Part shown: in pieces, positions 2,765 to 14,650 of the stretch
How the letters are laid out: each line of letters opens with the position of its first letter
Position numbering within the stretch: position 1 is the first letter of the stretch
Virus genome (UHGV): UHGV-0042153
Direction: 5' to 3' (one strand)
Origin: a virus
DNA: 14,650 nucleotides
Notes under the pieces: generated by a model
The model's input: the letters and a program-made list of their open reading frames with translations, nothing else
What the model was told of the DNA's origin: nothing
The model's database searches: none
Translations under genes and position numbers: made by a program

Positions 2765-3208
2765 ATGGCTCAGGCTGCCATTTTTAAAGAAATATTCGAT
2801 CAAGTGCGTAAAGATTTAAACTGTGAATTATTTTATTCTGAGCTAAAACGTCACAATATCTCACTTTATATTTACTATTTAGCCACAGATAATATTCACA
2901 TTGTGTTAGNNNNNNNNNNAGATAATATTCACATTGTGTTAGAAAACGACAACATAGTGTTAGTAAAAGGACTCAAAAAGGTTGTAAATGTTAAATTCTC
3001 CAGAAACAAACATCTTATAGAGACCTCCTATAATAAGTTGAAATCAAAAGAAATCACATTTCAACAATACAGGGAAAATCTTGCTAAAGCAGGAGTTTTC
3101 CGATGGGTTACAAATATCCAGGAACACCAAAGATATTACTATGCCTTTGATAACTCATTACTATTTACTGAAAGCATCCAGAAAACTACACAGATCTTAC
3201 CACGCTAA
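2765..3208 (+). CDS. ydfO: YdfO-like (DUF1398) prophage protein; reading frame passes through a 10-N gap
   Basis: Track ORF 2750..3208; I prefer ATG 2765 ([11 protein letters not shown]..., GGAAGG upstream). The gap plus a 23-bp duplicated flank adds 33 nt in frame (DNIHIVL-XXXX-DNIHIVL). Confidence 0.65.
2887..2942. repeat. Identical 23-bp sequence (AGATAATATTCACATTGTGTTAG) on both sides of the first N run
   Basis: Direct reading; typical of an unmerged contig overlap or an assembly break in a tandem repeat. Confidence 0.8.
2910..2919. other. Assembly or masking gap (10 N)
   Basis: Run of n characters. Confidence 0.95.
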
Positions 3209-3359
3209 ACCATAACGTCCGGCTTCTCTCACTCCTGAGCCGGACTGCATTGGTTTAATAAAAACCATCAACAATTGTGATTTAGATATTCGGAACCATT
3301 CAAATATAACAAAACCCCGTAAAAACGAGGTTTATGGATAAATTTTATTATTGAATACA

Positions 3360-3533
3360 TCAGATTAAATTAATCTTGACATCATAGCTTTCAAGACCCG
3401 TCATTTTTTCCCGTGCGGTAAACTGAATACTGGTAACTTCTTTCCCGGTCTTTTTCTTAAGTTCAATAATTTTTTTTGTTATATATTCAGAAATATCTGC
3501 TTCTGCTTTTGTTTTTAAGTTTTCAATATTCAT
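3360..3533 (-). CDS. gnsB: GnsB-like small protein (57 aa)
   Basis: Below the track cutoff; manual translation MNIENLKTKAEADISEYITKKIIELKKKTGKEVTSIQFTAREKMTGLESYDVKINLI with AGAGGA upstream of the ATG; matches the GnsA/GnsB family as I recall it and the gnsB position in Qin. Confidence 0.7.
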   Translation of the reverse strand: MNIENLKTKAEADISEYITKKIIELKKKTGKEVTSIQFTAREKMTGLESYDVKINLI

Positions 3534-3704
3534 CGTTTCCTCTTTTAGTCTGTTATGACTTTCCAGTTACACAGTAAGTCGATTATATGGTGCAAACGTG
3601 TAAAAGATAAGATGAAACATCGCAATAATCAACATACGATAGTCTAAATTTTACACAAACAGACAAAGAGAATTTTCCTGAATTATCAATACAATAGCAT
3701 CAAA

Positions 3705-3935
3705 TCAACTCAAGAGCCTTATTGCTGCTTCCAGAATTTCTTCTGAAGTAACATGTCGATCCGCGGCTACATAAATGACTTTATGATCTCCGGTCAGAGA
3801 TGGAAACCCTGCGGCCATTACAGTAAGGTGTGTTTTTTCGCCATTTGGATATTCACGCATGATGGTGTTAACTCCAGTCATCGCTGGCACTACCACTGCT
3901 GGTTCAGAGTTAAAAAAAACTATGATTTTTTTCAT
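3705..3935 (-). CDS. Hypothetical small protein (YnfN position)
   Basis: Track ORF 3705..3977 begins at TTG; the internal ATG at 3935 (MKKIIVFFNSEP...) is more plausible because the TTG overlaps a terminator. Weak RBS; assignment is by position only. Confidence 0.4.
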   Translation of the reverse strand: MKKIIVFFNSEPAVVVPAMTGVNTIMREYPNGEKTHLTVMAAGFPSLTGDHKVIYVAADRHVTSEEILEAAIRLLS

Positions 3936-3979
3936 GATGTTACCGTAGTATGTGAGTATCCATCGAATAGATACCAAGC

Positions 3980-3999
3980 AAAAAAGCTCCCGAAGGAGC
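3980..3999 (-). terminator. Intrinsic terminator-like hairpin downstream of cspI
   Basis: GCTCC-CGAA-GGAGC stem-loop followed by a U-run on the minus strand. Confidence 0.4.
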
Positions 4000-4206
4000 C
4001 TTCATTTTCACTTTTTTAAATCCAACGACAGACGGCTGGCATTTAAGTATTGTGAAATATTATCAAATGTAATCATCATTGATTTACAAAAGATACATTT
4101 TGCCCCGAAAGGATTCATGTCAGAAACATCAAAAGATGATGTTCTATACTGGGAACCATGACAACACGGGCATCTAAAGTGAATATGGTTTGTAATATTG
4201 TCTACC

Positions 4207-4419
4207 TCAAAGCGCCACTACATGAACAGCGGCAGGACCTTTAGGTCCGTTCTCAATACCAAATTCAACTTCCTGATTCTCAGTTAATGTTTTGAAATCG
4301 TTGCTCTGAATTGCTGAGAAATGGACAAACACATCTTTGCTGCCATCTTTCGGCGTGATGAAACCAAAACCTTTTTCAGGGTTAAACCATTTCACTAAAC
4401 CAGTCATTTTGTTAGACAT
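4207..4419 (-). CDS. cspI: Cold-shock protein, CspA family
   Basis: 70 aa; RNP1 KGFGFI and RNP2 VFVHF motifs; sequence matches CspI as I recall it. Confidence 0.9.
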
Positions 4420-4782
4420 AATTATTACCTTTTGAAGAAATTAGCCCTTGGGCAGAATGGTCCGAAAAAAAATATCAGAGAGAAAAACCAACAAGGAAAT
4501 CTCAAGAGGTACAAATAATAAAATTATAACAATGACTGCTTCAGATAAATTTGTAACAAACCAGAACACCATTAACGCATGATTAACCACCCATAGCAAG
4601 GATTACTTTTGTAAAGAAAAACACAGCAATGAAAGAATAGCTTTATTTATTAATAATAACGTGTCATTCTGATTAAGACCTTTTATCTTACCCTTAAGAT
4701 TTCAGGAATTTTGGCTCATGGAAGAGTCCTTTTTATTTAAATTTTACATTCCGCGATGTAAATGTTCCGATTTAATATTACC

Positions 4783-5806
<1,024 letters not shown>

Positions 5807-5810
<4 letters not shown>

Positions 5811-6118
5811 ATATATTTATGATGAGGACGCTCGTGCTTATTGGCAGGATTTTCAATCTTAAAGGAGTACTGATGCTGCAGATAAGACTCAACTTTTTCT
5901 GACAATTTTTCTGCTACTTCCAGGAAGACTTGCCGGACGCTCCTTCTGGCTGCTGCCTCATAAAACTCCAGCGCAGCTCCTTCAACACGGTCCATGGCGA
6001 CATCCAGGTCAAAAATTTCACCGTCAAAGCGTTTTTTGTCCCGTAACGCTAAAGTTACCGTAACTTTATTCTCAAAATTGCGGATCCCTTTCACAATCAG
6101 TTCATAGTTTTGAGTCAT
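5807..6118 (-). CDS. ydfR: YdfR-like (DUF1327) protein between holin and endolysin
   Basis: 103 aa, GGAGAG RBS; position matches ydfR in Qin. Confidence 0.7.
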
Positions 6119-6122
6119 TGAA

Positions 6123-6338
6123 TTACTCTCCTCTCGCAGCCTTACGCCTGTCTTCTTTAATCTTGAAATAAAGATTTGTCAGATACGTCAGCAGGCCAAA
6201 AACCAGGCTACCCAGCACACCGATTGCAGCCCACTGTGACGGAGTTACTTTATCGAGTAACTGCAATGCCCAGAAACCAGCATTACCCGCCGATGTGCCA
6301 TAGGCAACACCTGTTGTTAACTTATCCATTGATTTCAT
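6123..6338 (-). CDS. essQ: Class II pinholin (phage 21 S-like) with dual-start motif
   Basis: Track ORF trimmed to [10 protein letters not shown]... (71 aa); Met1 and Met4 dual start, two transmembrane segments, basic C-terminus [11 protein letters not shown]. Confidence 0.85.
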
Positions 6339-6557
6339 ATCCTCACCCCGATGTACACGGATGGTGCAATATGTTTGAAAAGATCGGAGTCTACGGGGTA
6401 GTTTTGACAGCACACGTTGTTCTCAACGGCGCTAAAAAAACATACACATTAAAAATGTGGGTAATTATTTTGAAAGAAAATCATATATAAAATAATAATA
6501 CGAGAAATGTTTTCATATTTAGTGTACTGTATACGGCCATTTATACAGGAAAAGCCT

Positions 6558-6728
6558 ATGTCAGAACGTAAAGACTCAAAATCACGCCGTAATTATCTCG
6601 TTAAATGCTCCTGCCCAAACTGCACCCAAGAGTCAGAACACAGTTTTTCAAGAGTACAAAAAGGTGCCCTTTTGATCTGCCCTCATTGCAACAAAATATT
6701 CCAGACAAATCTTAAAGCTGTAGCCTGA
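6558..6728 (+). CDS. Small zinc-ribbon protein (56 aa), possibly YnfU-like
   Basis: Internal ATG of track ORF 6507..6728 with AGGA RBS; two Cys pairs, CSCPNC and CPHC, about 20 residues apart. Confidence 0.5.
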   Translation: MSERKDSKSRRNYLVKCSCPNCTQESEHSFSRVQKGALLICPHCNKIFQTNLKAVA

Positions 6729-6784
6729 TTGATTTTATTAGTAACAAGTATTTTTTATATTTTAATAATATATTTAAAGCAGAT

Positions 6785-6809
6785 AATAAAAAACCCGCCT
6801 GAGCGGGTT
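6785..6809 (-). terminator. Intrinsic terminator (minus-oriented)
   Basis: AACCCGC-CTGA-GCGGGTT hairpin followed by a U-run on the minus strand. Confidence 0.5.
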
Positions 6810-7090
6810 TGAGATTGTGGTGCTTTTTGTGGGAGTCATCCACTTACGCACTTTGTTTTGCCATGCCAGCAGTTAGCTTCTGCTGTAAAACTATTCATGC
6901 AGCAAACCTGCACTTCACCACAATGGTTAGCATACTTTTCCTGATTAAGGTTTTGCCAAATATGCTGGCCATTGTTTCATGTATTGGACCTCCTTATTTT
7001 TATTAAAGAGATCCAATATTCACTACTCTGTCCGTATCTCTACTCAGGCATCAGCCTTCTTCGTTATCGTATACAGACGAGCGATGAATT

Positions 7091-7306
7091 TTAATCAGTA
7101 ATGATGACATTTGCTGCTGCAGGACCTTTAGCACCACTCTCTATAGAGAAGGTAACCTTTTGACCTTCAAATAAGGTTCGATAATTATCATTCTGAATCG
7201 CAGAAAAATGCACAAACACATCTTTACTACCATCAACAGGAGAAATAAAGCCGAAACCTTTATCAGCGTTAAACCATTTTACTAAACCAGTCATTTTATT
7301 TGACAT
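7091..7306 (-). CDS. cspB: Cold-shock protein, CspA family
   Basis: 71 aa; KGFGFI and VFVHF motifs; matches CspB as I recall it. Confidence 0.9.
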
Positions 7307-7606
7307 TCTACATTCCTTAACTTGAGCCTTTCGGCATAAATGGTTTGCATAACAGAAACGACTTCGTACTTAATTGGAGAGACTCAAAGAAGGAATAAGT
7401 GAATAACACCTGAAATGAGAACTGCTTTAGTAAACTACTTCGTATATCGTCTGTTCTTCAAACCGACGCAATCATTAACGCATAGTTGAACATATGAAGC
7501 AATGTTTATTTTAGACATCCAGCCATCTTCAACCCCATCAAAAAACTATAGCTTTCTTCAGGAACGTGTGTATAGTGCGCCAAGTTATCAGTATTAAGGA
7601 ATTTTT

Positions 7607-7819
7607 TTGTCCCGTAAAATGACAGGAATTGTCAAAACCTTTGACGGCAAAAGCGGCAAGGGTCTTATCACCCCATCCGATGGTCGTATCGATGTCCAGC
7701 TTCATGTTTCAGCGCTCAATCTCCGCGATGCAGAAGAAATTACCACCGGATTACGCGTGGAATTTTGCCGGATAAATGGTCTGCGTGGCCCTTCAGCTGC
7801 CAATGTTTACCTTTCATGA
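7607..7819 (+). CDS. cspF: Divergent cold-shock-domain paralog (CspF/CspH type)
   Basis: 70 aa beginning [10 protein letters not shown]; TTG start at 7607 with AAGGA 6 nt upstream; the aromatic RNP1/RNP2 residues are replaced ([16 protein letters not shown]). Confidence 0.8.
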
Positions 7820-7873
7820 GCTATATTAAAGCTTTAATTTCAGGCCCCATCGGATCACACATGGAGAGTTTTT

Positions 7874-7963
7874 ATGAATAACCCCGTCTGTCTTGATGAC
7901 TGGATGATTGGCTTTAAAAGCTTATGCTGTACTTTGGCCGTAATAGCTCTGCTAATAATATAA
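7874..7963 (+). CDS. Candidate 29-aa hydrophobic peptide
   Basis: ATG with GGAGAG upstream; [29 protein letters not shown]. No other support. Confidence 0.2.
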
Positions 7964-8112
7964 TAAGCAGACTCATTGTGTTTAGGGACATTGTACTGGA
8001 AGAAAACATTTTAAACATCAGGCAAATAACCAAGTCACCAGCTAAATAATAAGTTAACAGACATGAGTCCCGGGATGAGATTCAACATTACCATTGCCCC
8101 ATTTAAAGCACA

Positions 8113-8147
8113 AAACCCGCTCATCAGCGGGTTTTCTACTTTTTCTT
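8113..8147. terminator. Intrinsic terminator, usable in both orientations (cspF terminator and candidate tR')
   Basis: AACCCGC-TCATCA-GCGGGTT hairpin with a T-run on the plus strand and a shorter U-run on the minus strand. Confidence 0.5.
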
Positions 8148-8180
8148 AACGTCGGGTATACAAAGCCCATCGTTGAAAAA

Positions 8181-8209
8181 ATTTTATCCATATTTTTTGA
8201 AAAATGCAA
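8181..8209 (-). promoter_or_regulatory. Candidate late promoter (PR'-like) just downstream of quuQ
   Basis: Minus-strand TTGCAT, 17-bp spacer, TAAAAT; predicted start about 65 nt upstream of the hairpin at 8114-8133. Confidence 0.35.
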
Positions 8210-8240
8210 ACATCATGTCGCCATCTTCAGCAAAAATCAT

Positions 8241-8993
8241 TTATCTCGTCACCTTCCTCAATTGCGCTTCCGCGTATGCTTCTTCCTGCCAGCACTTTGT
8301 TACCAGTTTACCAATGACGTCCGCATACCCCTTATACCACTGATAATCGGTCAGGTCTGGTACCAGCTTCTGGACATGACGTCGTGCCAGCGTGGTCGGT
8401 AAACGACTAAACCGGTTTCCATTACAACGCCCACAAATCTTATATACCGGTACGCCATGAAACCGGGTTCTTTTTTCATCCAGAACAATCCCTTTACCCT
8501 TACACCCTCTGCACGCTGTGCTGACTTCGCCCTTACCATGGCAATGCTGACATAGTTCCTTCACCCATTCTTCCTTGATTACAGATTCCCCGCGTCTGTA
8601 GTGTTTCACCACTTCGCGCAATACATTATAAAATCCCGTACCTGAACAATGCTCACAGCGAGCCTTACTTGCCGCAGACCTGGAGTAATCAGCAAAGGCA
8701 AAACTCACGAGGTAAGGAATAATCTGTAACCGGATTTCTTCACTCAATTTGTTCAATGTCGGGTTATCCAGTGCCATCGCGTAATTTAGCAGGCCTTCAA
8801 TCGCAAACTGAGGGTCCTGAACACCAACTTTTGCCAGAAATAAGGCCAACCCAAGTGGTGCTTTCGACTGCACCATCCCCTGCGCTGCCATTACATCCGT
8901 AATTGTTAAACAACCGGTGCCTGTCGCTGGAGCGTCATCGCTCAATTTTGGAGATTTTGGGGAGTAATATTTTGGTAAGGCTTCAAGGTTCAT
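8241..8993 (-). CDS. quuQ: Late-gene antiterminator Q, lambda type
   Basis: Track ORF trimmed to ATG 8993 (GGAG upstream); strong resemblance to lambda Q (YSPKSP...TDVMAA...FAFADYSRSAA...CxxC zinc-finger pairs). Confidence 0.85.
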   Translation of the reverse strand: MNLEALPKYYSPKSPKLSDDAPATGTGCLTITDVMAAQGMVQSKAPLGLALFLAKVGVQDPQFAIEGLLNYAMALDNPTLNKLSEEIRLQIIPYLVSFAFADYSRSAASKARCEHCSGTGFYNVLREVVKHYRRGESVIKEEWVKELCQHCHGKGEVSTACRGCKGKGIVLDEKRTRFHGVPVYKICGRCNGNRFSRLPTTLARRHVQKLVPDLTDYQWYKGYADVIGKLVTKCWQEEAYAEAQLRKVTR

Positions 8994-9006
8994 GCTCGTT
9001 CTCCAC

Positions 9007-10095
9007 TTACGCCAGTACGCCAATTGCCAGCGCGCGATCGATAAAACGAAATATCAGCTCCAGTTGGGAGCCATACTTCTCTTCAAATGCCACTGTATCC
9101 GTATGCAGCTCGTTGTGATGCTTTCTGCACAAAGGCAACACAAAGAGATCATGTGCTTTTGTTCCCATTCCGCCCTGCCCGTGACCAATCAGATGATGCG
9201 GATCGTCGGCTGGCATACCGCAGCAAGCACACGGCTGTGTCTTAACCCAACGTGTGTATTTCTCCTTAACCCAGCGGCGACGTTTAGGCAGCTTCATGAA
9301 AGATTCCGGAGACTCTGGATCAACGGTGATGCTTACCACCGTCTTTTCCTGTGGTGGTTTTTGTTGCTGGTAGGCGTAAGGCAACGGTGCAAGATTTTTT
9401 GTGCGTTGTTTCAATATGCTGGTGGCGGTCTGCTCTCCCGGTACGATGTCGCTTTCGCGGTACACCGAGCAGATTTTTTCCGCTGGTAATCCCAGCGAAC
9501 GACGCGATACAGCCTCAGGTAGTGCATCCACCACCTGATTGCAGACCGCCCACCAGGATAATTCAGCCAAAGATAATTCCCGCTCCTGCGTACCGCTTAT
9601 TGCGTGACGGATGACGTCAATCACCCATGCTGTCAGATTTTGTTGAGCAAGCAGATCCAGTGATTCCGATGTCTGGTCACGCAGTTGGTTGTCGCAGTGC
9701 CAACACAACACCATTGCGCCGGTACCATAACGGTGAATGACTGTTTCAGAGTGATGGTAATCGCCATTAGGCCACTGGCAGGATGTAACATGACGTAATA
9801 GCCAGTCAGACAATGCGCCAACGCCGCCAGCAGCACGAATCACCCGTTCGTTACTAAAAAACGGCAGCAATGTTTTGTCTTCCACCAGCGGCTGGCGAAC
9901 GGCAGGAACGACTCCGGATGGCAGATTACGCATGCTTTTTGGTTCCGGTTCCACCAGCACTCGAGGATTATGAAATATCTGTATGGATTCACGGCCCGGC
10001 TTAAGGACCACCAGCCCAAGCTCAGGCACCAGAACAGGTCTAAGTAATACCCGCACGTTACCTCCAGATCCGTTGCTGGAAAGTGCGGGACGCAC
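9007..10095 (-). CDS. ydfU: DUF968-type nin-region protein with C-terminal HNH-like Cys/His cluster
   Basis: 362 aa, GTG start; motif QPCACCG...DDPHHLIGHG...CRKHHNELH; position between rem and Q as in Qin. Exact start uncertain. Confidence 0.8.
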   Translation of the reverse strand: MRPALSSNGSGGNVRVLLRPVLVPELGLVVLKPGRESIQIFHNPRVLVEPEPKSMRNLPSGVVPAVRQPLVEDKTLLPFFSNERVIRAAGGVGALSDWLLRHVTSCQWPNGDYHHSETVIHRYGTGAMVLCWHCDNQLRDQTSESLDLLAQQNLTAWVIDVIRHAISGTQERELSLAELSWWAVCNQVVDALPEAVSRRSLGLPAEKICSVYRESDIVPGEQTATSILKQRTKNLAPLPYAYQQQKPPQEKTVVSITVDPESPESFMKLPKRRRWVKEKYTRWVKTQPCACCGMPADDPHHLIGHGQGGMGTKAHDLFVLPLCRKHHNELHTDTVAFEEKYGSQLELIFRFIDRALAIGVLA

Positions 10096-10336
10096 GTGGT
10101 GGGCGTTCGGAGTAAGGCAATCTGACTGAGATTATCCAGTGACGGTAGTCGAGGCTAAGGGCTTTCTTAACCTCGTATCCGCGCCTGCGGTAACACTGAA
10201 TTATCCATTCAGCCTGCTCTTCAGTGCATGGAGGGTGTTGGAACCATTCAGACTTGAATGCGTGAGAATACCGCTCGTGCGTGCAGACAAGAACGGGCGA
10301 ATTATCAGAATTGTAATATTTTACGTTGCGTGCCAT
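10058..10336 (-). CDS. Conserved small phage protein (92 aa) overlapping the DUF968 start
   Basis: ATG with GGAG RBS; a paralog at 14010..14282 shares most residues and the same overlap arrangement. Confidence 0.55.
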   Translation of the reverse strand: MARNVKYYNSDNSPVLVCTHERYSHAFKSEWFQHPPCTEEQAEWIIQCYRRRGYEVKKALSLDYRHWIISVRLPYSERPPRASRTFQQRIWR

Positions 10337-10402
10337 CGGTTTTCTCCGGTGGCACGGTGTTACTCAGCGGGAGTTCAGCCCCGCGCAAGATTGTAGATGA
10401 GT

Positions 10403-10654
10403 TTATTCTTCTGCAAAAGCTGAAAAGCCTGCTTTTATTCCGATCTCTTTCAGTGCCTGTAATGAAGTGACAAACTCACCTTCGCGCAAGATAAATCCGT
10501 CCGTGACTCGAGCATCCACAAAATTAATTAACGCAGCCCCATTCTTTCGCAAACACAGAATGCGGTAATGACTAACAATGTTTCCATTTTCAACGCACAC
10601 AGCATAGAGGCCATCTTCACAAAAAATTTTACGCAGTTCTTCGATGTTCATCAT
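10403..10654 (-). CDS. rem: Rem-like small protein (83 aa)
   Basis: ATG with GGAAGG RBS; length and position match rem in Qin; function unknown. Confidence 0.65.
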   Translation of the reverse strand: MMNIEELRKIFCEDGLYAVCVENGNIVSHYRILCLRKNGAALINFVDARVTDGFILREGEFVTSLQALKEIGIKAGFSAFAEE

Positions 10655-10770
10655 CAGAATCCTTCCGGATAATTAACTCTCCCCTTTAAGGGACCATCCC
10701 TCTTATCCCTGCGCGCTACTTAAGTATTTTTGATTCTATTCCGGCACCGTCCAGAACTTCAAACGCGTTG

Positions 10771-10802
10771 AAAATAAAAACAAAAACCCGCCGAAGCGGG
10801 TT
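10771..10802 (-). terminator. Intrinsic terminator (minus-oriented) immediately left of gap 2
   Basis: AACCCGC-CGAA-GCGGGTT hairpin followed by a U-run on the minus strand. Confidence 0.5.
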
Positions 10803-10812
10803 AAGTGCGGGT

Positions 10813-10822
10813 NNNNNNNNNN
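10813..10822. other. Assembly or masking gap (10 N)
   Basis: Run of n characters. Confidence 0.95.
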
Positions 10823-10999
10823 TTTGAAATACAGGTTAGTCAGATATGTCAGGAAGCCCAGAACCAGACTCCCCAGTACACCAATCGCAGCCCACTGTGA
10901 CGGACTGACCTGATCAAGCCACTGTAAAAACCAGTAGCCAGCACTGCCTGCGGAGGTGCCGTAGGCAATGCCCGTTGAAATTTTATCCATGGATTTCAT
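10823..10999 (-). CDS. Second S21-like pinholin, truncated at its 3' end by gap 2
   Basis: [59 protein letters not shown] then N run; GGAGGTGAGG RBS; the track ORF's N-terminal extension (GTG 11098) is not credible. Confidence 0.7.
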
Positions 11000-11136
11000 A
11001 GCCTCACCTCCGCAGCGAACGGATGGCGTAGTTATAAGGGGAGCGAAAAAGAAAGAATGCGCGATTGCGCAATATGGTAACGTCAGGGTATTATCCACTG
11101 GCTGAATAGATCACTTCACGTTTTTTGTTCCTTGCC

Positions 11137-11164
11137 GCCCGTATCCATATGCGGGCTTTTTTTT
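11137..11164 (+). terminator. Intrinsic terminator (plus-oriented)
   Basis: 8-bp stem GCCCGTAT/ATATGCGGGC with 4-nt loop followed by eight T. Confidence 0.45.
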
Positions 11165-11170
11165 GCATGT

Positions 11171-11200
11171 AAAAAGGCCCCAACACATGTGCGTGGGGCC
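11171..11200 (-). terminator. Intrinsic terminator (minus-oriented) between the tRNAs and the holin
   Basis: GGCCCCA/TGGGGCC stem followed by a U-run on the minus strand. Confidence 0.45.
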
Positions 11201-11440
11201 TGAGAGTATACATGGTTTCAGTCAACTGCATGGTGCCGGGTGCCTCCCGGTGAATTCAGTACCAGCACCTGAATCCGCGATTATCCCATATACCTACTCG
11301 CTGATTGCCCCTCCGCACAGGGGGATTCACCATGCCAGTTTCTTTTAACAAACTCCCCGCAAAACAGACAACTGTCAACCGTCTGAATTGTGAGACATTT
11401 AAAAAAAAGGCCCGCAAAAGCGAGCCGGGAAAAATAAGTC

Positions 11441-11517
11441 TGGCGCGTTGTACTGGATTCGAACCAGTGACCGATTGCTTAGAAGGCAATTGCTCTGTCC
11501 GGTTGAGCTAACAACGC
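11441..11517 (-). tRNA. tRNA-Arg, anticodon TCT
   Basis: Manual fold: 7-bp acceptor stem GCGTTGT/ACAACGC, D-arm GCTC...GAGC, anticodon loop CTTCTAA, T-loop GGTTCGAATCC, encoded CCA. Confidence 0.85.
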
Positions 11518-11530
11518 AGGGTACAGATAA

Positions 11531-11607
11531 TGGACCGCCATCGAGGACTCGACCCCCGCGCAACCAGCTTCGAAGGCTGGTGCTCTATCCTGATGAGCTA
11601 ATGGCGG
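11531..11607 (-). tRNA. tRNA-Arg, anticodon TCG
   Basis: Manual fold: acceptor CCGCCAT/ATGGCGG, perfect anticodon stem CCAGC/GCTGG with loop CTTCGAA, encoded CCA. 5' end could be offset by 1 nt. Confidence 0.75.
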
Positions 11608-11614
11608 TATGTGA

Positions 11615-11690
11615 TGGTGGCCCTTGCTGGATTTGAACCAGCGACCTGGCGATTATGAGTCGCTCGCTCTCACCTCTGAGCTAAAGGGCC
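11615..11690 (-). tRNA. tRNA with anticodon CAT, ileX-like (tRNA-Ile2 type)
   Basis: Acceptor GGCCCTT/AAGGGCC; anticodon loop CTCATAA; closely resembles E. coli ileX as I recall it. Ile versus Met cannot be settled from the fold alone. Confidence 0.8.
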
Positions 11691-11810
11691 GGGCGCAGGA
11701 TAATAACGTTACGAAATCAATGTTGCAAGCATTCAAAAATCACCTGGTTAAAAATCACCCTTAGCTCCTCCACCAGCGCATTCACCATGTCTATCCGAGA
11801 TAAGTGGCAC

Positions 11811-11848
11811 AAAAAAACCCGCTTGTGGGCGGGTTTTGTTTGCTTTTG
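11811..11848. terminator. Intrinsic terminator usable in both orientations (candidate tR' for the second Q module)
   Basis: AACCCGC-TTGTG-GCGGGTT hairpin flanked by an A-run and a T-run. Confidence 0.5.
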
Positions 11849-11888
11849 CCATCACGTACAAAATCGGCAAAATATCAGATTTGCATGA

Positions 11889-11917
11889 AATATATGCCTT
11901 TCAATCTACTTTTGCAA
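11889..11917 (-). promoter_or_regulatory. Candidate late promoter (PR'-like) overlapping the 3' end of the second Q-like gene
   Basis: Minus-strand TTGCAA, 17-bp spacer, TATATT; predicted start about 65 nt upstream of the terminator at 11811-11835. Confidence 0.35.
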
Positions 11918-12590
11918 CACTTTGCTTTGAAAATGCCGCCTTTTGTTTTGAACGTGTTCTCATTACAAACAATAAAGCCTCACTATCCAGTCGTTGAAAA
12001 ATGTGTTTCATTGCAACCCAGTGACGAGTAAATGTTTTGGACCAGTTTTTAGTTGTCACTCCCGCCAGTAATGCCAGCTCCTGGTATTCATAACCTTCCC
12101 CACCAAAAAGTTCTGCTTTTACTGCCTGCGCCGCCAGCCAGATTAATTTTTTCAGGCGTTCCTGCGTTTTCCCTGCAATTTTTCTGGTACCGGATTGAGT
12201 ATTAAATTCATTCCACGCCCACTGTGTTATCGCGATCTGATATTCCCAACAAATACTCTCGCCGTAACACCACAACAACCAGGCTTTATGATGCTCTTCA
12301 AGAGACAGCAAAGCCCGCCGCCATGATGATGTCGAAAACTCAACCGGGCTGACCAGGGCAATTGATGAGCCATTCGCCAGTGATTGTTTTCCCGGGATTG
12401 GTGGATTATCCCGCGTTATCATTTTTCCAGTCACTTCATCGCGGTACCGGATTTTTTTTCGCCTGTAACGCCCTGTATCGAACATGGCATTCTCCTGCCA
12501 GGCTTCAAGCTGACCTTTTGTTGCCCCACTCAAATCAGCGGTGGCGATAATGAGCTGCTCACGCACAAACTGTAAATACTGGTTATTCAT
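11901..12590 (-). CDS. Putative second late antiterminator (Q-like by position); family not recognised
   Basis: 229 aa from ATG 12590 (GGAG upstream, ATGA overlap with rusA stop); sits between RusA and a promoter/terminator/tRNA/holin arrangement. No similarity to lambda Q visible by eye. Confidence 0.5.
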   Translation of the reverse strand: MNNQYLQFVREQLIIATADLSGATKGQLEAWQENAMFDTGRYRRKKIRYRDEVTGKMITRDNPPIPGKQSLANGSSIALVSPVEFSTSSWRRALLSLEEHHKAWLLWCYGESICWEYQIAITQWAWNEFNTQSGTRKIAGKTQERLKKLIWLAAQAVKAELFGGEGYEYQELALLAGVTTKNWSKTFTRHWVAMKHIFQRLDSEALLFVMRTRSKQKAAFSKQSVAKVD

Positions 12591-12946
12591 GCGCACTCCA
12601 GTTCTGTGATTTTTATCCCCAGCCGCCCACCAGGAACGAGCTGACCGCGCACAATATTGATTTCATCAAACTGCTCGTCGTCTATGAGAAGTCCGGCATG
12701 CGTCAGCGCATCCAGTGGTGCTTTCAGGATATTGTCCAGGTCACGACGGCGCTTATCCGGTGGCTCTGCAATAATTTTTATTGCCAGCCGTCCGGACAGG
12801 CTTAATTTCAGCCGCTGCTGGCGAACAATAAGCGCCACAGCCCGGCGATAACGCTTTCCCTCCTCCGAGATAAAATATGTGCTGCCACGGCGTCGCCAGT
12901 AAGTGTTCACCGTCGGCGGGTAAGGTAAAACCAAATCTATGAGCAT
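12587..12946 (-). CDS. rusA: RusA-family Holliday junction resolvase
   Basis: 119 aa; PDKRRRDLDN and LDDEQ acidic motifs typical of RusA; AGAGGTGA RBS. Confidence 0.85.
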   Translation of the reverse strand: MLIDLVLPYPPTVNTYWRRRGSTYFISEEGKRYRRAVALIVRQQRLKLSLSGRLAIKIIAEPPDKRRRDLDNILKAPLDALTHAGLLIDDEQFDEINIVRGQLVPGGRLGIKITELECA

Positions 12947-12958
12947 CAGTCACCTCTT

Positions 12959-14080
12959 TTACCCGAGCACGCCAGTTGCAAAGGCGTGATCAAGAAAACG
13001 AAAAATTAAATCAACCTGAGAACCATGCTTTTCTTCGAACGCCAGAGGATCCGCATGAAGCTCGTTGTGATGCTCCCGACACAGCGGTAGCGTGAAAATA
13101 TCGTGAGATTTTGTCCCCATTCCGCCCTGACCATGACCAATCAGGTGATGGGGATCGTCGGCTGGCTTACCACAACACGCACACGGCTGTGTCTTCACCC
13201 AGCGTGTGTATTTCTCGTTAACCCAGCGGCGACGTTTAGGTCGTTTCATGAAAGATTCCGGAGACTCAGGATCAACGGCAATGCTGACCACCGTCTTTTC
13301 CTGTGGTGGGTTCTGTTGCTGGTGGGCGTGAGGCAGCGGCGCAAGATTTTTTGTGCGCTGTTTCAGTATGCTGGTGGCGGTCTGCTCTCCCGGTACGATG
13401 TCGCTTTCACGGTACATTGAGCGGATTTTTTCCGCACGCAACCCCAGCGAACGACGTAATACCGCTTCCGGTAGCGCGTCCGCCACCTGATTGCGGACCG
13501 CCCACCAGGATAATTCAGCCAGAGATAATTCACGCTCCTGCGTACCGCTTATTGCGTGACCGATGACGTCAATCATCCATGCTGACAGGTTTTGATGAGC
13601 AAGTTGCTCGAGTGATTCGGATGTCTGGTCACGCAACTGGTTGTCGCAGTGCCAGCACAACACCATTGCGCCGGTACCATAACGGTGAATGACGGTTTCA
13701 CTGTGGTGATAATCACCGTGTGGCCACTGGCAGGATTTAATATGGCGCAACAGCCAGTCAGACAGTGCACCAGCGCCGCCAGCAGCACGAATCACACGCT
13801 CATTGCTGAAAAATGGCAGTAATGATTTATCCTCCGCCAGCGGCTGGCGAACGGCAGGAACGACCCCGGACGGCAGATTACGCATGCTTTTCGGTTCAGG
13901 CTCCACCAGCACTCGAGGGTTATGAAATACTTGCATGGATTCACAGCCCGGCCTAAGGACCACAAGCCCGAGTTCCGGTACCAGAACAGGTCGAAGTAAT
14001 ATCCGCACGTTACCTCCAGATCCGTTGCTGGTATGTGCGGGATGGGCGCGGTGGGCGTTCGGAATAAGGGAGCCTGACAT
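12959..14080 (-). CDS. DUF968-type protein, second copy (paralog of 9007..10095)
   Basis: 373 aa; same HNH-like motif (QPCACCGKPADDPHHLIGHG...CREHHNELH); most positions identical to copy 1 with scattered substitutions. Confidence 0.8.
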   Translation of the reverse strand: MSGSLIPNAHRAHPAHTSNGSGGNVRILLRPVLVPELGLVVLRPGCESMQVFHNPRVLVEPEPKSMRNLPSGVVPAVRQPLAEDKSLLPFFSNERVIRAAGGAGALSDWLLRHIKSCQWPHGDYHHSETVIHRYGTGAMVLCWHCDNQLRDQTSESLEQLAHQNLSAWMIDVIGHAISGTQERELSLAELSWWAVRNQVADALPEAVLRRSLGLRAEKIRSMYRESDIVPGEQTATSILKQRTKNLAPLPHAHQQQNPPQEKTVVSIAVDPESPESFMKRPKRRRWVNEKYTRWVKTQPCACCGKPADDPHHLIGHGQGGMGTKSHDIFTLPLCREHHNELHADPLAFEEKHGSQVDLIFRFLDHAFATGVLG

Positions 14081-14282
14081 AGATTATCCAGTGACGATAA
14101 TCGAGGCTGAGGGCTTTCTTAATCTCGTATCCGCGTCTGCGGTAGTTATGAATTAGCCATTCGGCCTGTTCTTCAGTACATGGTGGGTGTTGGTACCAGT
14201 CGGTTTTAAATGCGTGTGAACGCCGCTCATGCCGGATGGCAAGGTCGGTATCAGAATTGTGAAATTTGGTTTTGTGCGCCAT
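14010..14282 (-). CDS. Conserved small phage protein, second copy (paralog of 10058..10336)
   Basis: 90 aa; shared C-terminal half HPPCTEEQAEW...YRRRGYE[VI]KKALSLDYRHWII.VRLPYSERPPR. Confidence 0.55.
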   Translation of the reverse strand: MAHKTKFHNSDTDLAIRHERRSHAFKTDWYQHPPCTEEQAEWLIHNYRRRGYEIKKALSLDYRHWIIYVRLPYSERPPRPSRTYQQRIWR

Positions 14283-14391: not shown

Positions 14392-14401
14392 NNNNNNNNN
14401 N
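14392..14401. other. Assembly or masking gap (10 N)
   Basis: Run of n characters. Confidence 0.95.
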
Positions 14402-14437: not shown

Positions 14438-14593
14438 TTACTCCTCATGTTCGTAAGCTGTGAAGACAGCGGCCTCCGTCTGGCCGGTTCGGATTCGTAC
14501 CCCCCAGAGGTCTTTCCTCGTTACCAGTGCCGTCACAATGACGGTTAAACAGATGACGATCAGGGCGATTAACATCGCCTTTTGCTGCTTCAT
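14438..14593 (-). CDS. Hok/Gef-family type I toxin (51 aa), HokD/RelF-like
   Basis: Internal ATG of track ORF 14438..14650 with GGAG RBS: MKQQKAMLIALIVICLTVIVTALVTRKDL...; single transmembrane helix; an overlapping upstream frame (mok-like) starts at the window edge. Confidence 0.8.
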   Translation of the reverse strand: MKQQKAMLIALIVICLTVIVTALVTRKDLWGVRIRTGQTEAAVFTAYEHEE

Positions 14594-14650
14594 AGCCTGC
14601 TTCTCCTTGCCTTTCGGCACGTAAGAGGCTAACCTACATGTGTCTAGCAT

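Follow-up and report, generated by a model that had tools for sequence, protein, structure and literature searches.

The window, by which we mean the whole 14,650 nucleotides (nt) of virus genome UHGV-0042153, very probably contains two late-gene switches, each from a different lambdoid prophage of Escherichia coli: a Qin-type switch built around an antiterminator of the Q-lambda family (module 1) and a second switch built around an antiterminator of the Q82 family (module 2), each with its cognate PR'-type late promoter, pause element and terminator. For both modules we infer that the promoter is active, that polymerase pauses, that Q binds and that the terminator is then read through. An earlier note, made from the letters of the window, had described the same two regions as different Q-type late-control modules, the first with a lambda-type Q gene and the second with an unrelated gene for a protein of 229 amino acids (aa), and had proposed that they share one promoter-terminator geometry.

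Two antiterminator genes of unrelated families

The two genes at the centre of the modules are:

8241-8993, minus strand: antiterminator gene of the Q-lambda family, 250 aa from its ATG, homologue of ydfT/quuQ (Pfam, PDB, PHROG, collinearity with Qin)
11901-12590, minus strand: antiterminator gene of the Q82 family, 229 aa (PF06323, phage 82 Q, RefSeq)

The lambda-type label given to the first gene is borne out by several independent comparisons. The 250-aa protein matches PF03589 in a Pfam profile search (E=3.5e-54, 181.3 bits against a cutoff of 26.7) and PHROG 127 (E=3e-106), and both its N- and C-terminal parts align with Q-lambda in PDB entry 7UBM (E=5.6e-36). Positions 2920-10812 of the window are collinear with Qin of strain K-12 at 98.5% identity, and the gene at 8241-8993 is there ydfT. 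Judged by its sequence, module 1 Q is a member of the Q-lambda family and corresponds to ydfT/quuQ of the Qin cryptic prophage. Qin-type Q holds four motifs of the CXXCXG(X)G type (CEHCSGTG, CQHCHGKG, CRGCKGKG and CGRCNGNR) and in Pfam it also scores against the DnaJ central zinc domain. Only two of the four zinc motifs are covered by the alignment with lambda Q, so that about 40 aa containing a second motif pair have been inserted in Qin-type Q.

The 229-aa protein, which the earlier note took for a Q-like antiterminator while finding its family unassignable, turned out to be easily assigned and is already annotated in RefSeq. The profile search that had been suggested for it returns PF06323, 'Phage antitermination protein Q', over positions 1-217 of a 220-position profile (E=2.3e-91, 305.8 bits against a cutoff of 25), and the protein also matches PHROG 304 (E=1.2e-107). 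When phage genomes were searched in translation, phage 82 Q was identical at 176 of 229 positions (77%) with no gaps (E=8e-132), and the gene of phage 434 described as 'Q82-like' was 74% identical. Prophages in many complete genomes of E. coli contain the segment 10823-12700 at 100% identity, and the gene product there is WP_001064896.1, 'bacteriophage antitermination protein Q'. The 229-aa gene is thus a predicted antiterminator whose membership of the Q82 family is firm. The gene order also fits a Q82-family gene, placed at the end of the early (nin) region and immediately before the late promoter and the lysis genes: around module 2 the window reads DUF968, RusA, Q, promoter and terminator, tRNAs and holin, and a complete prophage carrying the module reads RusA, Q, tRNAs, holin, lysozyme and terminase, with Rz also present.

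PF06323 and PF03589 represent the Q82 and Q-lambda families, respectively, among three recognised and unrelated Q families (PMC9388147). The Q proteins of the two modules show no detectable sequence similarity to each other, in agreement with the earlier suggestion that they are unrelated. A PDB sequence search with the 229-aa protein gave no match at E<=0.01, the Q82 family being one without a solved structure (PMC9388147), and no NCBIfam model matched the protein.

Promoters, pause elements and terminators

Downstream of each Q gene, the following elements were recognised:

8181-8209, minus strand: predicted PR'-type late promoter of module 1, -35 TTGCAT at 8209-8204, 17-bp spacer, -10 TAAAAT at 8186-8181 (sequence)
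8166-8174, minus strand: predicted sigma70-dependent pause element of module 1, AACGATGGG, with AACGAT at +1 to +6 and GGG at +7 to +9 (identical in the alignment with lambda PR')
8108-8135, minus strand: predicted intrinsic tR'-type terminator of module 1, hairpin AAAACCCGCTGATGAGCGGGTTTT at 8135-8112 and a U-rich tail to about 8108 (folding, phage SfV)
11889-11917, minus strand: predicted PR'-type late promoter of module 2, -35 TTGCAA at 11917-11912, 17-bp spacer, -10 TATATT at 11894-11889 (sequence, conservation)
11858-11882, minus strand: predicted 82-type pause signal of module 2, TG at +6/+7, TATTTT at +9 to +14, GCC at +15 to +17, predicted pause U at +25 (11858) (published features of 82 PR')
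11811-11837, minus strand: predicted intrinsic tR'-type terminator of module 2, AAAACCCGCCCACAAGCGGG, 9-bp stem and U7 (folding, sequence)

Both promoter-terminator layouts, which the earlier note had placed on the minus strand with 17-bp spacers, were recovered, and its estimate of a terminator about 65 nt further on agrees with terminators that span +40 to about +67 in module 1 and +46 to +72 in module 2. The +1 position was assigned as the seventh base after the -10 hexamer, which places the promoter elements at -35 and -12 in both modules and gives a predicted start at the A in 8174 (module 1) and at the A in 11882 (module 2).

In lambda, the Q binding element (QBE) is located in the spacer between the -35 and -10 elements of PR'. 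The module 1 promoter aligns with lambda PR' (TTGACT-N17-TAAATT), and lambda TCAACGATGGG is kept exactly in module 1 at an equal distance from the -10 hexamer. In lambda PR', AACGAT constitutes the -10-like pause element and is followed by GGG at +7-9 (PMC5001585). The module 1 terminator has a 10-bp stem and a GAUG loop, and its hairpin is predicted at -23.6 kcal/mol (z=-8.7 against shuffled sequence), leaving a leader of about 63-67 nt. K-12 Qin has the whole stretch from promoter to terminator in identical form. The stretch is also conserved in phage SfV, whose record annotates a rho-independent terminator just downstream of its own Q gene, with a hairpin sequence shared with the window. 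A lambda-type PR', pause element and terminator are thus found after module 1 Q, and their activity is predicted.

In module 2, the -35 element falls inside the last codons of Q. The phage 82 PR' is characterised by a pause element of the extended -10-like kind, with GCC at +15-17, a stretch rich in A and T, and a U at position +25 (PMC5001585), and all of these published sequence features are found at their published positions in module 2, pausing itself being predicted. The comparison was based on the features reported in that study together with the sequence of phage PhiR47_2; a search of paper texts for the 82 PR' sequence gave unrelated matches only. Over its last 458 nt, the Q gene of PhiR47_2 agrees with phage 82 Q at 98.3% identity, and PhiR47_2 is identical to module 2 from +1 to +17. 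When the regions downstream of Q were aligned for eight Q82-family phages (from Escherichia, Enterobacter, Klebsiella, Salmonella and Cronobacter), a conserved block emerged, TTGCAAAA...CATATATTTCATG.AAATcTGATAT...GCC, with divergence after about +20. The spacer between -35 and -10 is only partly conserved in this alignment, and it overlaps the coding end of Q. The module 2 hairpin is predicted at -16.4 kcal/mol (z=-3.9 against shuffled sequence), and termination there would leave a leader of about 72 nt. An 82-type PR' with its pause signal and terminator is likewise found after module 2 Q, again with predicted activity.

The distance to the terminator hairpin varies within the Q82 family, the leader ending by eye at about +54 in phage 434 and about +80 in PhiR47_2, and in lambda the termination site lies at +193 (PMC4914094). 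A short distance from promoter to terminator is thus not a fixed family feature, and the 'same geometry' of the two modules is partly coincidence. The repeated layout described in the earlier note is nevertheless present, on either side of a scaffold gap (10813-10822), and the inference drawn there, that the 229-aa gene is a Q-like antiterminator, is supported.

A site at 11912-11925 on the plus strand, TTGCAACACTTTGC, fits the lambda CII consensus TTGC-N6-TTGC. Its strand is antisense to Q, and the site shares bases with the -35 element of the late promoter, the palindrome TTGCAA; at the equivalent place, the phage 434 record annotates a CII site and the -35 of paQ. The TTGCN6TTGC pattern occurs twice in the window against 1.2 occurrences expected, which alone is not above chance.

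How much of this could be fortuitous? The promoters had been called near-consensus, which is overstated: their hexamers match the consensus at 8-9 of 12 positions in both modules, and such sites number 27 in the window against 22.3 expected in shuffles, so that the hexamers alone carry no weight. It could then be argued that the hexamers are chance matches and that the hairpins merely end the Q-containing early operon or convergent transcripts, with no late-control unit present; each hairpin also scores as a terminator on the plus strand, and the one in module 1 has cspF converging on it. We find this explanation hardly credible. The layouts rise above chance because family-specific pause elements sit exactly at the right offsets from the -10 hexamers and because the promoter-and-pause block is kept across genera while its flanks diverge. 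The location directly after Q is moreover canonical, as in lambda and in phage 434 with its Q82-like gene.

The reading of both modules as cognate, working late switches nevertheless has to be weighed against several points, to which the chance rate of the hexamers and the plus-strand activity predicted for the hairpins belong. Both hairpins may serve other transcripts too, for example cspF beside module 1. Since module 2 Q differs from Q82 at 23% of its residues, its DNA-site specificity may differ. Finally, Qin is cryptic in K-12, and module 1 may therefore no longer drive a productive late programme. An extension of this last point would be that the modules are intact-looking relics, one or both of them, especially the Qin-type one, being defunct as a switch in a defective prophage. 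The match of 2920-10812 to the cryptic Qin, where ydfT is only a 'putative' antiterminator, speaks for it. However, the gene is intact, as are the promoter, the pause element and the terminator, module 1 recurs at 99.7% identity in the deposited complete phage genome record PhiR42_1, and the prophage that carries module 2 in complete genomes has full lysis and packaging genes. We regard such decay as unlikely and retain the interpretation of the modules as two late-gene switches.

A working scheme for the two switches may be drawn from characterised members of the two families (PMC4914094, PMC9388147). RNA polymerase would start at PR' without help from Q, after which sigma70 would re-bind the -10-like element and hold the early elongation complex at about +16 in module 1 or at +25 in module 2. 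With Q absent, transcription would stop at the terminator and leave a short leader RNA of about 65 nt (module 1) or about 72 nt (module 2). Q made from the early operon would bind its promoter site and join the paused polymerase, assisted by NusA, and would then travel with the polymerase, so that transcription runs through the PR'-proximal terminator and those further on and reaches the genes for lysis and morphogenesis. The late transcript of module 2 would cross three tRNA genes first and then the holin gene. For 82Q, a QBE, a pause at +25 and stimulation by NusA have all been described (PMC4914094).

It is tempting to ask whether the short leaders (about 72 and about 65 nt) are more than by-products of antitermination and act in trans as small RNAs in lysogens, in the manner of StxS or IsrK, both of which are short RNAs from antitermination-regulated phage promoters (PMC7547250, PMC4825925). 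The module 2 leader (11812-11885, minus strand) gives full-length matches to isrJ (RF01393, 24.5 bits, cutoff 37) and isrK (RF01394, 22.7 bits, cutoff 50), and the start of the isrJ consensus, uguAaauCUGAUAuC, is nearly identical to the first 15 nt of the leader, in the region of the pause element. Both scores nevertheless fall below the Rfam gathering cutoffs and leave the leader outside the IsrJ and IsrK families; across the two leaders, Rfam returned sub-threshold matches only, mostly generic resemblances to terminators or leaders (such as Phe, Trp and Leu leaders and OrzO-P). Since the common 5' sequence is the pause element itself, the likeness may reflect promoter architecture only. We consider it improbable that the leaders 11882-11811 and 8174-8108, which would be made constitutively from the two late promoters, work as trans-acting small RNAs in the lysogen. 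The resemblance suggests that the isrJ and isrK families are leaders of 82-type late promoters, as they would be if the leaders did work in this way.

Contig structure and neighbouring genes

The relation between the modules depends on one further feature, and a tRNA cluster follows module 2:

10813-10822, no strand: scaffold gap of 10 N that parts the module 1 contig from the module 2 contig (sequence)
11441-11690, minus strand: three tRNA genes (CAT anticodon, Arg-TCG, Arg-TCT), downstream of the module 2 terminator

Three runs of exactly 10 N (2910-2919, 10813-10822 and 14392-14401) show the window to be a scaffold of four contigs, and the run at 10813-10822 lies between the modules, which are therefore on different contigs. 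Taken as given, the window presents the modules in series, as if a single hybrid prophage truly carried both late switches in tandem at a distance of about 3.7 kb, an arrangement that we consider very improbable. The apparent tandem is almost certainly a scaffolding artefact because: (i) the 10-N gap separates the modules, (ii) the two contigs are paralogous to each other (78-80% identity in their DUF968 and holin genes) and have nearly the same 37-nt ends, (iii) among 5,426 complete E. coli genomes there was no place covering at least 80% of window positions 8100-12600 and no tandem of the modules in this order, and (iv) complete genomes carry module 2 in a prophage of its own. The contigs that end at 10812 and 14391 have identical last 30 bases before the N, within a direct repeat of 47 nt (37 nt and the 10 N) at 96% identity, and such near-identical contig ends are the pattern expected from an assembler breaking at repeats common to two prophages. 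At the first gap, AGATAATATTCACATTGTGTTAG (23 bases) stands on both sides, pointing to overlapping contig ends. By comparison with K-12 Qin, the last contig could come after either of the two contigs before it. Given the scaffold gap between them, the two late switches are not to be read as belonging to one hybrid phage.

The three tRNA genes are cargo at the head of the module 2 late transcription unit, before the holin gene; the one with the CAT anticodon is called Met by ARAGORN and tRNA-Ile in RefSeq. A further promoter-like site, TTGCAA-N17-TATTAT, lies by the cluster at 11728-11700 (minus strand), and a strong Rfam match to the STnc100 small RNA family (RF02076, 140 bits against a cutoff of 47) occupies 11165-11364 (minus strand), between the tRNA genes and the holin gene.

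Upstream of the Q genes, the two contigs carry paralogous DUF968/YdfU genes at 9007-10095 and 12959-14080 (both minus strand; DNA about 80% identical over the first 300 nt) and paralogous proteins of about 90 aa at 10058-10336 and 14010-14282 (both minus strand; no Pfam match). A RusA resolvase gene (12587-12946) lies between DUF968 and Q in the 82-type module only. In the Qin-type prophage, the late transcription unit includes the cold-shock genes cspB and cspI, whose 5' leaders and coding regions are spanned by Rfam matches to the cspA thermoregulator at 7075-7467 (minus strand, 159 bits) and 4180-4565 (minus strand, 113 bits). Towards the end of the window, a hokD toxin region (14438-14650, minus strand) is accompanied by a partial match to the sok antitoxin RNA (RF01794, 33.6 bits), which the end of the window truncates.

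Comparison with known systems

Both Q families, the promoter-pause-terminator units and the genes of the two modules have already been described and annotated, so that nothing in them is new. What is gained is a firm family, Q82, for the 229-aa gene; beyond correct annotation the importance is small, and this copy of Q adds nothing special to the question of Q82 structure. A strain that carries both prophages would possess two late switches with unrelated Q proteins and separate pause signals, and we infer that these should not cross-activate.

Module 1 may be compared with the Q gene and PR'/tR' region of lambda, to which it is homologous: the PR' sequences align and the pause element AACGATGGG is the same from +1 to +9. 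Lambda Q has 207 aa vs 250 aa in module 1 Q, the extra stretch corresponding to two more CXXCXGXG zinc motifs and bringing the total to four, and the lambda termination site at +193 (PMC4914094) contrasts with a terminator that ends at about +65 in module 1.

For module 2, the system to consider is Q and PR' of phage 82. In both, the Q protein has 229 aa and aligns without gaps, the gene follows rusA, the -35 element lies in the last Q codons, and the pause region combines an extended -10-like element with GCC at +15-17 and U at +25. The differences concern the 23% of Q residues that are not shared, several positions of the spacer (AAGTAGATTGAAAGGCA in module 2 vs AACTGGATTAAAAATCA in the 82-like phage), the leader beyond +17, the terminator sequence and the three tRNA genes that follow the terminator in module 2.

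The leaders recall two known small RNAs. StxS, of 74 nt, arises by processing of a 258-nt transcript (PMC7547250), whereas the module 2 leader of about 72 nt would be made directly by termination. In the IsrK/IsrJ system of Gifsy-1 (Salmonella), the isrJ consensus starts nearly as the module 2 leader does, the leader itself scoring under the family cutoffs.

The late region of Stx phages shares with module 2 the order Q, promoter, terminator, three tRNAs (Ile-CAT, Arg, Arg) and holin, and records of PPompW prophages that were deposited along with Stx2a-converting phages contain near-identical copies of module 2 Q, although module 2 itself is without stx genes. As for the other switch, ydfT (quuQ) of K-12 Qin is the same element as module 1 in another strain: promoter, pause element and terminator are identical, and there is essentially no difference between the two.

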